From IMG/VR virus record IMGVR_UViG_3300008448_000010: a stretch of DNA of 64,000 nt; one strand, 5' to 3'. Source of the stretch: an uncultured virus (IMG/VR IMGVR_UViG_3300008448_000010). Its lineage: Duplodnaviria > Heunggongvirae > Uroviricota > Caudoviricetes. The notes beneath the pieces are model-generated. The model was not told where the DNA came from. It made no database searches and worked only from the letters and a program-made list of their open reading frames with translations. Shown piece by piece: positions 2,418 to 23,645 of this stretch. How positions within the stretch are numbered: position 1 is the stretch's first letter; each line of letters starts with the position of its first letter. The position numbers and the translations under genes are program-made.

Positions 2418-5400
2418 TTATATTGTTGGGAATATAGTTATTTCTCCTGTTATATTTGTTTGAGGTGGAAATAATGAATAAAATGTGCATGATCCTGCAG
2501 CTACTGTTACTTCAGATTGCATTCCACAAGTTGTTACTTCAAGATAACTAGTCCTATCAGGAGTAAAATCTACTCTTGTATTTACTGTTATGTTTACATT
2601 AGAAAATGTATATGTATAATATCCACTTACAAGTGACCAACTTGCTGAAGTTAATGTTTGAGCTGTTAATTTATATATGCTTCCACCTCCACCTCCACCT
2701 GAAGAATTTATTGTAACTACTCCTGTACCACCTGCGGGAGATATTGTAACATTTGTTCCTGCAACAATTTGTGTAACTCCACCTCCTCCTCCACCTGGAG
2801 CTGCCCATGTACCATCTGCACGTAAAAAGTTTGCAGTACCACCACCACTTGCAGGTGCAAGACCTTTTAATGTAGATGTAAATGTATCTATTAATGTTGT
2901 AGCTTGTGTACCAGTTAATGTTTCAACATTACCCGTACCTGCTGTTACTCTTCCTTGAATTGTACTTGTTGCTACCTGTGCTAACATAGCATTAGTAACT
3001 ACATTTGCAGCTATTGTAGTAGTTATTGCAGTTGTTCCAGTTCCGGTAACATTACCAGATAAAGTAATAGTTGCAGCTGAAGGTGTAGGTATATTTAATA
3101 CATTACTTATTAAAGTAGCAGCACCTGATCCTGTTGTTGTTAAACTTGTTATTCTGTTTGTATATGCAGTATTCCAATCTGCACTATTATTAGTTATTGA
3201 AGTTCCCCAAGCTGAACCTGTTGAAAGTGCAATACCTGCTGCAGGATAAACCATTCCACCACCACCACCACCACTTGACCATGAAGAACCATTGTAAAAG
3301 TTGAGAGCATTTAAAGTAGTGTCATAAACAATAAGTCCACTTGCAGGAGTAGCAATAGCATTCTTCTGTGTTGTGGTCATTACAGGTGGTAAAAAGCCTT
3401 GTGTTGTAGAACTTACTTGTAAAGCAGCAGTTGTTACTGAAGTGTTTGTTCCTATGTTTACAGTACCAGATACTGATAATCCATTAGTTGGTGCAGCAGT
3501 ACTTGCACTATATCCTATAGCAGCATTACCATTTACCTGTAAAGAACTACCAATTGTAGTAGTGTTCACACCCAAATTTCCACTTGTATTTATTACTATA
3601 CCACCTGTGTTCCAACCACCAATTGAATTTTTAGTAGTAAATATTAAATTGTCACCTGCATTTCCTGTTTGAAATTGTGATGTATAAATAGCTGCAGAAC
3701 CAAATCCACCACTATTATAAAATCCAATTCCATTTAACGCACCTGATGCAGCATTTGTATTTCTTACATATAAAGCAGGAGTTAAAAGGTTTGCAGTAGT
3801 TGCACTACTATTTACTAAAAATGCTGATGAATTAGTATTGCTTGTTGCTCCTATTATTGCAGCACCTGCAACCGCTAAACCATTAGTTGGAGCAACGGTA
3901 CTTACTGAGTATCCAATTGCAGCATTACCATTTACCTGTAATTTAGAACCTAAAGTTGTAGTTCCAATTCCTGTATTGCCAGCAGCATCTAAATATAATA
4001 TAGTATCATATGTGGTTCCCGTTTGTGTTTGACTGCGTTGTATGGCAAAATCCCCAAAAACTAATTGGTCAGATGTAAATCTCCAACTTCTTGATGCAGC
4101 ATTTGCAAAATAATTAAAAATAATATAAGAACTTCCTCCTTGTACTGCTAAACCATTTGTAAAGGTTTTTGTTCCATTAAAAGTTTGAGCAGCAGTTGTA
4201 ACTACACCTCTAGCAGTTGCACTTGCATCAGGTAAATTAAATGTGTGTGTTGATGTTGCTGAACTTATTGCAAAATCAGTTCCACTTGTTCCAACTGCAA
4301 AAGTTTGAGTAGTTGCAGTTAAAGTATTTAATGTAGTAATTCCACTACTTCCACCTGAATATTGTGGAATATTTAAAACACCTGTTACAGAACTATATGT
4401 AGCTGCACCTGATGTTCCTGTAGTAGTTAAACTAATGGCTGATCTAGCTAAAGCATCTGTATATTGAGTGATTGTAGATGTTATAACACCCGTTGTATTG
4501 TTATAACTAATTCCTGTGCTTCCACTTAAAGAAGCTAAAGTAATAAAGTTAGAACCATTAGTAATTTGATTGTTGTTAGTTGGTATAGTGATAACTCCTG
4601 TTGTAGAATTATATGCTCCAGAACCTGCAACAAATGAATTAGATAATCTTGCTCTTACATCTGTGTAATATAAGTTAGTACCTTCTGTTACTTGTGAAGT
4701 TGTATAATCTCCGCTAACTGAAACTACTGCACCAGTCCTTCCAAATACACTAGAAACACCTGAAACAATTGAACCTATATTTCCATTAAGTTTTTGTATT
4801 GCAGTTAAAATAGTATCAGTTGCTGATATTGTTCCTGGACCACTTACATAACCAGTTAAAATAGCAGAAATTGCTCTAACATTAGTAAAATATAAATTAG
4901 AACCTTCAGCAATGTTTGAAGTTGTTAAACTTACAGCACCTGTAAAACCATTTACAGAAACTACGGCATCAGTATTGTCTACTTTTTGCCATACACCACC
5001 ATTAAATATTGCCCAATCTCCAATGTTCCAATCAGTAATTCCATTTAAGTTAGTAGAACCTGCAACATTTACAATATAATAATATCCTGAAGTTCCAACA
5101 CTACTTGTTAATGGAGGTGTATTAGTTAAAGCATTCCAAGTACCTTGATAAGTTGAACCACCTATTAAACCATTAATTTGATTTTGAACTTTACCAAAGG
5201 CAATTAAGATAGAATCAGTAGCTGAAATAGTTCCTCCTGTAATATTAACTCCTGTTAAAACTTTTCCTATTACTGCTGAATTTACTAAAGATGGATTTGC
5301 ATAAGTTCCACTTAATTCACCTCCTGCTGTAATACCTGATATGGTTGTTAAATAAGTTGAGTTATCATAAGAAATAACTGTACCTATAATTTTAACAAAA

Positions 5401-17752: not shown

Positions 17753-18022
17753 ATGAATCCAAGCAAAGGCAACAATGCTTGGATTCTTAATATAAACATT
17801 ATGAGACAATATTTTAATCAAGGTTATAGTAAATTTAGTTTTAAAAGAATTGTAACAAAAACAGAAAAAGCTACATTATTTGAAATTATACCTAAAATAG
17901 AAATTTGGTTACCAAATAGTTGGTTAATTAAATTAACTAAAACTTCATTTACAGTAAAAGATCATATTGCAACAGATGTAAAACTTAAAATGAATGCAGA
18001 ATTTAAAGCACTTAAAAAATGA
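17753..18022 (+). CDS. hypothetical protein (KTEKATLF...WLPNS)
   Basis: ORF track. Confidence 0.65.
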   Translation: MNPSKGNNAWILNINIMRQYFNQGYSKFSFKRIVTKTEKATLFEIIPKIEIWLPNSWLIKLTKTSFTVKDHIATDVKLKMNAEFKALKK

Positions 18023-18108
18023 ACAGAGAAGAAATACAAGCAGAAGCATTAAAAGCAACTGAAGGTAAGCAAAGATGTAGTATTGTATTAGGCACAGGTT
18101 ACTTGTAA
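18019..18108 (+). pseudogene. truncated original 5' end of the SF2 helicase gene (29 codons)
   Basis: MNREEIQAEALKATEGKQRCSIVLGTG-YL*; 23/27 aa identical to the helicase N-terminus at 18905. Confidence 0.85.
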
Positions 18109-18137
18109 AATTTAAATAGTTTTTGTACCTTTATGGT

Positions 18138-18908
18138 ATGAAAATGACTAAAGGTTTTGGGTACAAAAAATGTGGTGTTTACTGCATTACTAATACAGTA
18201 AACAACAAAAGTTATATTGGAAGCAGTATCCATATTTATTTTAGACTAAGAAGACACAAGTCTGATTTGGCAAGAAATTGTCATGATAACAAGTATCTTC
18301 AAAATGCTTATAATAAATATGGTGCTGATTCTTTTATAGCATCTATTGTTGAAGAATGTTTTGAAAATGTAGTTTTACAAAGAGAACAACATTATATTGA
18401 TAATTTAAATCCTGAATATAATTTAACAAAAGAAGTTATTAATAATAGACTTTCTGAAGAATCAAGATTAAAAATATCTATTACTATGAAAGCAAAAGCA
18501 AAAGCAGGTATTAGAGTCAATCCTCTTAATGAAGATAAACAAAAAGAAATTGACTTATATGACTGTAATTGTAAATTTATTAAAAGATTTAATTCTTATA
18601 ATAATGCTGGTAGATTTATAAAAGAAACCTATCCAATATTTACACCACATAGTGTGTCTATTATTGTTAAAAGTAAATATGGTAGATATAAAAATTATTT
18701 TTTAATTAAACCAGATTCAATTTGTAATTCTGATTTATCTAAAAGTGGTTATGCATTATTAATTACTAATACATTAACTTCAGAAATCTTTAAATTTAAA
18801 AGTGCTGCACAAGTTGCAAAATATTTAACATGTAGTCATTCTTCTGTTATACAAGCATTTCATAAACAAAGACCTCTGTTAAAAATATATAAAATAGAAA
18901 AATTATGA
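18138..18908 (+). CDS. GIY-YIG homing endonuclease with C-terminal NUMOD-like DNA-binding repeats
   Basis: GVYCITNTVNNKSYIGSS...R...H...LQNAYNKYG...REQHYID..PEYN; own promoter-like TTG...TACCTTTA just upstream. Confidence 0.85.
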   Translation: MKMTKGFGYKKCGVYCITNTVNNKSYIGSSIHIYFRLRRHKSDLARNCHDNKYLQNAYNKYGADSFIASIVEECFENVVLQREQHYIDNLNPEYNLTKEVINNRLSEESRLKISITMKAKAKAGIRVNPLNEDKQKEIDLYDCNCKFIKRFNSYNNAGRFIKETYPIFTPHSVSIIVKSKYGRYKNYFLIKPDSICNSDLSKSGYALLITNTLTSEIFKFKSAAQVAKYLTCSHSSVIQAFHKQRPLLKIYKIEKL

Positions 18909-19996
18909 ATAGAGAAGACATTCAAAAAGAAGCATTAGATGCTACTATAGGAAAACAAAGATGTAGCATTGTGCTCGGAACTGGTGTAGGTAAGACCCTT
19001 GTTGGCCTAAAACATATGCAACTTTATACTACACCTCTTATGAGAACATTAGTAGTTGCACCTAAAAAATCTATTTTTCAATCTTGGAAAGATGATGCAG
19101 CAAAGTTTGATATGCTTGAACAATTAAGTAGAATTACATTTACAACTTATCTAAGTTTAAATAAACATAATCCTGCTGACTTTGATGCAGTGTATTTAGA
19201 TGAAGCTCATAGTTTATTAGATAGTCATAGAGGATTTCTACAACTATATAAAGGAAAGATAATTGGTCTTACCGGGACTCCTCCAAGATATAAAGATTCT
19301 GAAAAAGGTAGATTAATACAGGAATTTTGTCCTGTAATATATACTTTTAAAGCAGACTCTGCTATAGAACAAGGAATACTAAATGATTACCAAATTATAG
19401 TACATGAGTTAGAACTGAGTAATGAAAAGAATTATTCTGTAGTAATGAAGAATAAAAGTTTTATGAGTTCTGAAGTACAAAACTATAATTATTGGGGTCA
19501 AAGACTTGAAACTGGTTCTGGACCTGTCCATATTCTTAGAGTAATGAGAATGAAAGCAATGATGGAGTATGCTAGTAAAGAAAAATATACTAAAAAGTTA
19601 ATGGATAGCATTAATACTAAATGTATTGTATTTGCTAATACACAAGATCAAGCTGATAGATTATGTTCTCATAGTTATCATAGTAATAATACTAAATCTG
19701 AAGAAAATCTTGAGATGTTTAAAGACGGGTCTATTTTAAAACTTTCTACTGTTATGCAGTTAAATGAAGGTGTTAATATATCTAATCTTAAACAGGGTAT
19801 TATTATGCATTCATATGGTAATGAAAGAAAAGCTAGTCAAAGAATAGGTAGGTTGCTCCGGTTAAATCCTGATGATAAAGCTATTGTACATATATTATGT
19901 TATATGAATACAGTTGATGAAAAATGGGTTAAAGAAGCCTTAGAAGATTTTGACCAAACTAAAATTATATGGAAAAATTACAATATTCCCGTATAA
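18905..19996 (+). CDS. superfamily 2 DEAH helicase
   Basis: GTGVGKT Walker A, LDEAH, GLTGT, QRIGR. Confidence 0.9.
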   Translation: MNREDIQKEALDATIGKQRCSIVLGTGVGKTLVGLKHMQLYTTPLMRTLVVAPKKSIFQSWKDDAAKFDMLEQLSRITFTTYLSLNKHNPADFDAVYLDEAHSLLDSHRGFLQLYKGKIIGLTGTPPRYKDSEKGRLIQEFCPVIYTFKADSAIEQGILNDYQIIVHELELSNEKNYSVVMKNKSFMSSEVQNYNYWGQRLETGSGPVHILRVMRMKAMMEYASKEKYTKKLMDSINTKCIVFANTQDQADRLCSHSYHSNNTKSEENLEMFKDGSILKLSTVMQLNEGVNISNLKQGIIMHSYGNERKASQRIGRLLRLNPDDKAIVHILCYMNTVDEKWVKEALEDFDQTKIIWKNYNIPV

Positions 19997-20008
19997 TTTA
20001 TATATATT

Positions 20009-20269
20009 ATGAGTATGGAAGATATACAAACACATAAGATTATGTTATATAATGATGATGTAAACTCATATGAATATATTATGGCCTGTTTAATAGGTTT
20101 ATGTAAACATGAAGTAGTACAAGCAGAACAATGTGCTTTAATAGCACATAACAAAGGCAAGTGTGAAATAAAACATGGAGATTTTATGGATATGTTTGAA
20201 TTAAAAACTACCTTTGATAACTTAAATATTAAAGTTGAATTAGAAGAGTATGAAAGTGATTTGTATTGA
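20009..20269 (+). CDS. clpS: ClpS-like N-degron adaptor
   Basis: LYNDDVNSYEYI...AEQCALIAHNKGKCEIKHG. Confidence 0.8.
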   Translation: MSMEDIQTHKIMLYNDDVNSYEYIMACLIGLCKHEVVQAEQCALIAHNKGKCEIKHGDFMDMFELKTTFDNLNIKVELEEYESDLY

Positions 20270-22787: not shown

Positions 22788-23225
22788 ATGAAACAGACAG
22801 CAGTAGAATGGTTAATTGGGCAGATGAAAACATACAATATGACTCTTTCAGTTCAGAACACTAGTCATCAAAATGTAATAGACTTTTATAAGGCTGTTGA
22901 AGAAGCCAAAGAAATGGAGAAATTACATATAATAGTAGCTTGGAAAGATGGAGATGGAGAGTTTGATAAAGCAGCAGATTCATTGTCTGAATTATACTAT
23001 AATGAAACCTTTAAATCAAAACATAAGTATGACCCTTTTTATGCAGATATAATTAACCAAGCCAAAGCAATGGAGAGATATCAGAAAGATGACTCAATTG
23101 AAAAACAAGTAAGTATTTTAAAAGATACACTTGAAGAAATGATGACAGGATTTGACTCTGAAGAAAATAGAATAGATTTTATTCTTGATATTTGCAATGG
23201 CTATAAGAAAAGAATTAACCTTTAA
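22788..23225 (+). CDS. MKQTAVEWL-family protein (fusion of two units)
   Basis: Blocks TAVEWL, AKEMEK and YYNETFKS, then a second AKAME block. Confidence 0.75.
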   Translation: MKQTAVEWLIGQMKTYNMTLSVQNTSHQNVIDFYKAVEEAKEMEKLHIIVAWKDGDGEFDKAADSLSELYYNETFKSKHKYDPFYADIINQAKAMERYQKDDSIEKQVSILKDTLEEMMTGFDSEENRIDFILDICNGYKKRINL

Positions 23226-23236
23226 ATCAGAATAAG

Positions 23237-23422
23237 ATGAAACAAACAGCAGTAGAATGGTTGGTTGAGCAAATGAAATTAGATGAATTATTTAATGCAG
23301 ATTATTTTATTGAACAAGCAAAAGAAATGGAGAAGGAGCAGATAATGGATGCTTTTAATGGTGAGCCACATTGTGATGGAGATGGTGATAGATACTACAA
23401 CGAAACCTTTAAATCAGAATAA
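23237..23422 (+). CDS. MKQTAVEWL-family protein
   Basis: Same three conserved blocks. Confidence 0.75.
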   Translation: MKQTAVEWLVEQMKLDELFNADYFIEQAKEMEKEQIMDAFNGEPHCDGDGDRYYNETFKSE

Positions 23423-23423
23423 G

Positions 23424-23645
23424 ATGACAGCAGTAGAATGGTTGATAGAAGAATTAAGAGGAGCTCATGTCAAAGGAGATTTTATCTTTAATGGAGTTAT
23501 AACTTCTGAATTGATTGAACAAGCCAAAGAAATGGAGAAGGAGCAGATTACTGAAGCACACACATTTGGCTATGTTATAGGAGGTGGTAAGGGAGATTTA
23601 TATAATCCTGAGCAATACTACAATGAAACCTTTAAATCAGAATAA
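23424..23645 (+). CDS. MKQTAVEWL-family protein (start MTAVEWL)
   Basis: Same three blocks; ATG lies in the 24-bp junction repeat. Confidence 0.75.
   Translation: MTAVEWLIEELRGAHVKGDFIFNGVITSELIEQAKEMEKEQITEAHTFGYVIGGGKGDLYNPEQYYNETFKSE

Follow-up and report, generated by a model that had tools for sequence, protein, structure and literature searches.

A GIY-YIG nuclease gene with a second helicase start in a likely Crassvirales-like phage: a probable splicing-free homing element that replaces a gene's 5' end

The window, by which we mean the whole 64,000-nucleotide stretch of uncultured virus DNA analyzed here (IMG/VR record IMGVR_UViG_3300008448_000010), is a 29% G+C phage stretch that encodes DNA polymerase, primase, DnaB, Sak4 and very large genes on the opposite strand. 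The best cultured matches of its helicase are Flavobacterium and Bacteroides phages, and the window phage is therefore likely a Crassvirales-like phage of Bacteroidota. The helicase gene is preceded by a nuclease gene and by a second, truncated copy of its own start, in the following order.

17753..18022, + strand: 89-aa upstream open reading frame (ORF), context outside the mobile unit, with a stop that overlaps the ATG of the stub
18019..18099, + strand: stub, the first 27 codons of the resident helicase and the proposed left homology arm; 80/81 nt identical to the nuclease-free relative L002
18103..18133, + strand: promoter-like motif (TTG, 20 nt, TAnnTTTA) at the left end of the element, conserved over element loci
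18119..18145, + strand: RNA hairpin predicted on read-through transcripts at the start codon of the nuclease, no more than suggestive (z -3.1)
18138..18908, + strand: GIY-YIG homing endonuclease, 256 aa, with a NUMOD1-like C-terminal part (PF01541, E 1e-11)
18905..18991, + strand: replacement helicase 5' end, codons 1 to ~29; its ATG overlaps the nuclease stop
18992..19996, + strand: body of the resident SF2 (XPB/Rad25-like) helicase, continuing the frame of the replacement to give a 363-aa protein; 96-97% amino-acid identity to the nuclease-free L002 and L003

As a preliminary description of this locus had reported, the helicase start at 18019 is coupled to the upstream gene by ATGA and breaks off before VGKT, a GIY-YIG gene follows, and the second start at 18905 is identical to the stub at 23 of 27 amino acids; the codons it quoted are correct, and the nucleotide identity is 63 of 81. 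The last stub codon is Gly27 (18097-18099), the glycine preceding VGKT, after which come two unrelated codons and a TAA (18106-18108). The resemblance of the stub to a helicase start is above chance, with a tblastn E of 5e-6 inside the window and an ungapped score of 112 versus a maximum of 26 among 86 nuclease-free loci. The ORF downstream of the nuclease matches ResIII, DEAD and Helicase_C and is XPB/Rad25-like. Because the same arrangement recurs in loci L001 and L152, and a 950-nt contig from run X6 of another study spans it with five differences, an assembly artefact is ruled out. The X6 contig (DNA) begins at 18069 and ends at 19018, the ends that branching of 31-letter words would produce if the sample also contained an empty allele. 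The upstream 89-aa ORF has no match in Pfam or PHROG, and it is not found 5' of the stub in L012 or L013. Immediately 3' of the helicase lies a ClpS-like gene (20009-20269), and positions 22788-23645 hold small ORFs, three tandem paralogues with 38-54% identity.

The catalytic residues of the window nuclease are intact. Arg36 and Glu83 align with the positions mutated in the I-TevI structures 1ln0 and 1mk0 and are invariant in 30 family sequences, and the protein has the make-up of an I-TevI-type enzyme: a GIY-YIG domain with catalytic Arg and Glu, and a C-terminal DNA-binding part. Of 32 element rows, 30 have TTGTAAA just past the left junction, and a TAnnTTT-like box follows about 20 nt later. 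Since the loose promoter pattern matches 27 times in the window, it is this conservation, and not the pattern match, that is the evidence for a promoter. A TTG element is also found upstream of the Flavobacterium promoter box. That box, TAnnTTTG, occupies positions -12 to -5 (PMC9723704), and by its spacing the RNA would begin at or near the nuclease ATG. Across the family, a hairpin over the nuclease start has weak support: of 26 element sequences only 4 reach a z below -3, the named structure is 82% paired with 3 of 11 pairs covarying on a weak consensus, and the hairpin is predicted only in the window and a few relatives. Where it is predicted, it would parallel the hairpin control of translation described in T4 (PMC2988022).

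The two starts can be compared with L002, a nuclease-free relative whose helicase is 97% identical in amino acids to that of the window. The stub differs from the L002 helicase start at a single position, whereas the replacement differs at 21 positions in nt 1-87 (19/81 over the first 81 nt); over the rest of the helicase there are 37 differences in 1005 nt. As the L002 start matches the stub and not the functional start, the stub is the resident start, and the working start an import. The preliminary description had predicted that the helicase 5' end of nuclease-free relatives would match the stub, and this held: they have a single start, and it is stub-like. The nearest record, G001, has the flanks and a single helicase start, with no nuclease match beyond 48 nt, and was not counted as a separate case. 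Comparison with empty alleles places the left junction at the final base of codon 27 (+/-1) and shows foreign sequence continuing to approximately nt 84-87 of the second copy (18988-18991).

The window and L012/L013 differ at 162 of 1092 helicase nucleotides (~85% identity), while the element differs at only 9 of 805 (99%) and the L012 replacement at 2 of 81. Given a near-identical element in diverged helicases, the cassette has moved laterally. A second pair, L100/L103, has a 94% identical nuclease and a 99% identical replacement on helicase bodies that are 84% identical. In both pairs the nuclease and the second start travel together between diverged bodies, as had been proposed for a mobile unit. 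Only nt 54 and 56 (window 18958-18960) distinguish the replacement of the window from that of L012, and at both positions each replacement agrees with its own stub, possibly a short conversion patch.

Four of 80 helicase loci, kept from 357, have a second start and a nuclease (L001, L012, L013 and L075). The nuclease family comprises 26 clusters at 54-95% identity, and their alignment retrieved 67 viral and 40 metagenome loci; the pooled set contains 249 loci with a usable helicase Walker A, 162 of them unique. A stub is present in 23 of the 162, including near-duplicates (L096/L097/L099 and L108/L109), and all 23 have the nuclease. We also looked for nuclease-free relatives that keep the duplication, which would have spoken against the reading first proposed. 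None of the 86 nuclease-free loci that extend 1100 nt or more upstream has a stub (top score 26, versus 39-115 in stub loci). Fifteen of the 162 have a GIY-YIG gene and no stub: five distant nucleases, two truncated contigs and eight family members. Among these eight, the stub is clearly gone or degraded in L103, L158, L107, L111 and L114, and L091, L156 and L157 have little upstream DNA; a further 38 of the 162 loci are too short to class. All 23 stubs keep the ATG and an open frame and end at one shared Walker A codon, with nucleases down to 37% identity. A search of a genome collection gave one match, a Bacteroidales MAG carrying an element of the L173 type.

The stubs differ by lineage. 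When stub and replacement were compared with the empty relative having the closest helicase body, the stub was the nearer of the two in 8 of 10 loci; the other 13 of the 23 have no close empty relative under this rule. The exceptions are L075 and L095, for which the nearest body (L076) matches neither copy, although the L075 stub is identical to L051. In eight hand-picked close pairs, stubs differ from the empty allele at 0-7 of 81 nt and replacements at 19-32, and 16 of the 19 codon changes in stubs keep the amino acid. Dead stubs that mirror the present working alleles of each lineage are what repeated homing would be expected to leave. A single old insertion with a duplicated start, inherited vertically ever since with the stub as an inert relic, fits the lost or eroded stubs of five loci and the broken nucleases of L146 and of the gut phages crAssBcn14 and crAssBcn18, but it does not sit with stubs that each match the present empty allele of their own lineage, nor with near-identical elements in helicases that are 12-16% apart. 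That history appears largely refuted, and we regard it as very improbable. Across 136 non-independent pairs, replacement divergence tracks that of the nuclease (rho 0.57) hardly better than that of the helicase body (0.43).

Several loci depart from the basic layout. The cassette of L093 (1440-1900) holds as cargo a small ORF together with a tRNA-like sequence that scores 40 bits in Rfam, L096 and L153 have a small Cys-rich ORF behind the stub, and L116 (3800-4250) has two ORFs between nuclease and helicase. In L146 (L146/L163) the nuclease is broken early and the stub intact, and in the distant element L173 (L173/L394) only ~8 nt separate stub and nuclease. Distant GIY-YIG genes (28-41%) without a stub are found upstream of the same helicase in L014, L023, L043, L078, L216 and L339.

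The preliminary description saw neither a group I intron core nor an intein, and our searches agree. The stub, the nuclease and the second copy lie in three different frames and a stop follows the stub, which excludes an intein, since an intein would be an in-frame insertion in the host protein. An Rfam search of the window at E up to 5 gave no intron match, no group I core was found in 11 other helicase-associated loci of the family, and there is no noncoding room for a ribozyme core 3' of the nuclease ORF. The element lies outside the coverage of RNA runs X15 and X16. One could still picture a cryptic self-splicing intron, or ribosomal bypass, with the stub as the true first exon and the second start incidental: related nucleases are intron-encoded, and the sensitivity of Rfam is limited, as it finds no match in the split dnaB loci L396, L397 and L399, which are probable phage introns. 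Group I introns follow a U/G rule at their splice sites, and cuts after 18100 (T) and 18986 (G) would fit it. However, there are only 38 nt before the nuclease ATG and none after its stop, compared with Rfam-positive group I cores of ~230-290 nt behind the nuclease in L119, L140 and L142. The base after Gly27 is not conserved, L090 and L096 have an eroded codon 27, L093 and L096 have cargo genes behind the stub, and stubs have been lost where the helicase is whole. Splicing would also be needless, because a complete second start is present. Splicing is thus unlikely from the sequences at hand, and an intron or bypass reading of the locus as a whole has very little probability.

In L119, L123, L140 and L142 (~2800-4050), a related GIY-YIG clade with 36-48% identity resides in group I introns, and these interrupt the Walker A codons of an AAA ATPase, 2-3 nt from the motif position occupied by the helicase element. 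L107 (3150-4210) has a second nuclease-bearing insertion near a helicase C-terminal motif; it gave no Rfam match and is probably an intron.

The replacement start had been described as recoded at wobble positions near the junction. The window replacement differs from L002 at 9 nt in codons 21-29 with no amino-acid change, but 28% of intact allele pairs at the same distance reach nine differences, in a null set of 7,626 pairs from 124 intact alleles. For seven element pairs, between 0.06 and 0.94 of the null pairs show as much difference or more, and only L013/L010 reaches 0.06 (0.015 among same-amino-acid pairs). We therefore rejected deliberate wobble recoding, as the junction divergence is within the ordinary spread of alleles; the replacement 5' end is better read as a diverged foreign allele. 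The proposal of a splicing-free unit that invades a gene without inactivating it is otherwise supported: nuclease-free relatives have a start like the stub, nuclease and second start move together, and the promoter-like motif is conserved.

The imported start may resist cutting. Because its junction has no excess divergence over ordinary alleles, resistance is not readable from the sequence. Residue 25 was one candidate, being Ala in 20 of 22 replacements. We rejected Ala25 as an immunity change: among alleles free of the family, residue 25 is Gly in 75 of 75 of one set and natively Ala in 26 of 71 of another, and the window's own replacement has Gly; Ala25 may therefore reflect ancestry. The set of 124 intact alleles is also biased to Gly by its selection pattern. 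Similarly, the exact 23-mer of the replacement junction occurs in three contigs, all element-bearing, but the idea that this junction exists only with the nuclease was abandoned, as nuclease-free L198 has the 23-mer with one mismatch.

L198 is one of three nuclease-free chimeric alleles. In L198, from the window's lineage, 8 of 11 informative sites to nt 48 are stub-type and 6 of 7 from nt 51 are replacement-type; L344 is stub-type at 17 of 17 sites and then replacement-type at 9 of 10; and L340 switches from stub-type to replacement-type at nt 63. The patch in L344 and L340 is similar to replacements that distant elements have in common and was therefore most likely contributed by the element, whereas for L198 either direction would fit. 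The three chimeras look like immune by-products; they point to codons 21-28 as the site and may be natural candidates for resistant alleles.

Taken together, we favor a splicing-free homing element that carries a replacement helicase 5' end, to which we give a probability of about 80%, with cleavage itself an inferred step. The element would span ~890 bp (18099/18100 to ~18990) and consist of a promoter, the GIY-YIG nuclease and foreign helicase codons 1-29. On co-infection with a nuclease-free relative, the nuclease would cut the empty helicase allele near the Walker A codons. The broken ends would pair with the donor, the left one with its stub and the right one with its helicase body just beyond the junction, and the cassette would be copied into the recipient during repair, as in established double-strand-break homing. 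The recipient's old start thereby becomes the new stub and the helicase would be made from the imported start, which is the outcome seen in the sequences. The donor would be protected, since divergence of the imported start would make it resistant and the right half of the site would be missing from the stub. As a recombination arm the stub would need no function and could decay or vanish, as it has in several loci. If the left end paired instead with the replacement, or stub and replacement recombined, the product could be a nuclease-free chimera of the kind found in L198, L344 and L340.

Alternatively, the cassette might only hitch-hike, with a nuclease that cuts at a distant site, or not at all, and with spread by recombination through the arms or by co-conversion. 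The window phage does encode a Sak4-like annealing protein. In T4, uvsW is a helicase gene. Free-standing T4 nucleases cut hundreds to thousands of base pairs from their own genes, and SegE, encoded between inh and uvsW, targets uvsW (PMC2988022). Nevertheless, in the phage family the break is fixed to one codon across nucleases that are 36-100% identical, the foreign tract ends within a few codons of the break point, and the flanking genes vary freely. Furthermore, the related clade, whose group I introns interrupt the Walker A codons of a different ATPase, points to Walker A coding DNA as the type of target. Hitch-hiking is therefore improbable, while deserving some weight, and we retain the homing element as the preferred reading.

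Homing endonucleases are taught as intron-borne, intein-borne or intergenic. The mobile element SXT integrates into the 5' end of prfC and supplies a new start and promoter, but by integrase-driven site-specific recombination, and the phage element has neither an integrase nor an att core. Closer precedents, left unnamed in the preliminary description, are the WHO elements and mitochondrial gene hybrids. WHO elements home into FBA1 of Torulaspora and Lachancea yeasts (PMC7282813). As here, their homing unit is a nuclease gene plus a piece of the host gene (resistant in WHO), the displaced piece stays as a noncoding homology arm, no RNA or protein splicing takes place, and the 5' and 3' ends of the host gene do not share a history (PMC7282813). 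WHO elements replace the 3' end, encode an intein-like zinc-finger nuclease related to HO, act in meiosis and form tandem clusters (PMC7282813), whereas the phage element replaces the 5' end, which places it between the gene and its upstream promoter, and has a GIY-YIG nuclease, its own promoter and a coupled start; no tandem stacks or second stubs were found among the loci. It shares the general WHO layout in mirror orientation, with the nuclease between a full-length chimeric gene and a gene fragment, the fragment coming from the recipient and the replacement traveling with the nuclease (L075 and L095 excepted under the nearest-body rule), but not the features of the WHO family proper, which are an HO-like intein-zinc-finger nuclease, the FBA1 3' end and tandem clusters. 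In fungal mitochondria, mobile endonuclease ORFs form hybrids with Glomus atp6, atp9, cox2 and nad3 and, as cited there, with Allomyces atp6, leaving a nuclease in a coding gene with a foreign gene end and the native end left behind; atp9 is a GIY-YIG case (PMC3630166). These hybrids, like the C-terminal duplications in Endoconidiophora, are C-terminal and organellar (PMC3630166, PMC6279837), and the term "N-terminal" is absent from the available text of PMC3630166. The best reading would be that the phage element is not a WHO but works like a 5' mirror of WHO and of the mitochondrial hybrid ORFs.

The T4 seg and mob genes are likewise intron-less GIY-YIG phage genes, SegE adjoining its target, and have their own promoter and hairpin control of translation, but they are intergenic and cut far from their own gene; insertions into T4 genes give genes in pieces, as in the split genes with mobE and mobA (PMC2988022). 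In contrast, the phage element lies inside what is the helicase frame of empty relatives, so occupying its presumed target, and leaves the helicase encoded as one polypeptide. The stem "duplicat" does not occur in the available text of that review of intronless homing (PMC2988022). In ICP1-like phages, HEG islands contain small fragments of essential genes near homing nucleases, proposed as recombination substrates for homing, but these islands are multi-gene and nuclease-flanked, and a fixed-codon stub with a replacement start is not described in the text available (PMC10055350). That paper is also the closest we found for 5' gene-end replacement in phages, of which mostly open-access main texts gave no description. 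Nucleases of crAss-like phages have been treated as signs of introns or inteins (PMC12386605).

The gene-end-replacing class is thus known from yeasts and fungal mitochondria at 3' ends, and the phage family would be its 5' mirror, with about twenty distinct elements at one codon. As judged from the genomes compared here, the arrangement is real, mobile and family-wide. Because empty, occupied, decayed and chimeric alleles are all present, the whole life cycle can be read from genomes. Annotators should note that the stub was left unannotated in the GenBank records examined, and tree-builders that codons 1-27 of these helicases do not share the history of the body.

Beyond the lake phages, the layout also occurs in human-gut crAss-like phages, whose helicase is 25% identical to that of the window (E 4e-30). 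Eighty-seven phage records match the nuclease, and cr112_1 is the one of five examined with the layout of stub, nuclease and replacement. Its 25-codon stub ends at the same motif position as in the window, and its 220-aa GIY-YIG gene (36% to that of the window) is overlapped by the replacement start. Against the start of crAss001, the stub has 4 differences in 75 nt and the replacement 31. Thirty-eight records match the cr112_1 helicase, six from nt 1 (cr112_1 twice and crAssBcn14, 15, 16 and 18) and 25 only from nt 62-64. The four of these 25 that were examined, crAss001, Bcn22, Bcn1 and cr106_1, are all empty, and their starts are 4-6 of 75 nt from the cr112_1 stub and 30-34 of 75 from its replacement. 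Because cr112_1 carries an element at the site and crAss001, which is in culture together with its host, does not, the mechanism is directly testable. In crAssBcn14 and 18, the two of four crAssBcn carriers examined, stub and replacement are kept, and the promoter and the catalytic domain are deleted; on these grounds we rejected a dependence of the helicase on the element's promoter. As the crAssBcn phages have been plaque-purified (PMC10354031), this arrangement is viable. The available text of PMC10354031 makes no mention of the locus.

A wider history can be sketched tentatively, and we consider it possible rather than probable. It would be an old, Crassvirales-wide homing lineage of a third class, which would have kept to a single Walker A codon boundary in lake phages and in gut relatives of crAss001 alike. 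The lineage would share an ancestor with the GIY-YIG genes in Walker A group I introns of the AAA ATPase and would have captured a gene start in place of a ribozyme, as a splicing-free alternative to, or precursor of, mobile introns. It would also seed nuclease-free immune alleles and so give a mosaic helicase N-terminus. Nuclease trees, which have long branches, gave no resolved order among the helicase clade, the intron clade, L173 and cr112_1.

Two annotations in the gut phages bear mention. The gp88 of crAss001 (L401 1438-2613), annotated as a "putative HKD family nuclease", matches Pfam DEAD, Helicase_C and ResIII. In crAssBcn14 and 18 (L400 2250-2300; L405 1180-1230), the start codon of the replacement reads ATA, and the annotated helicase start is an in-frame ATG seven codons upstream, within the nuclease relic.
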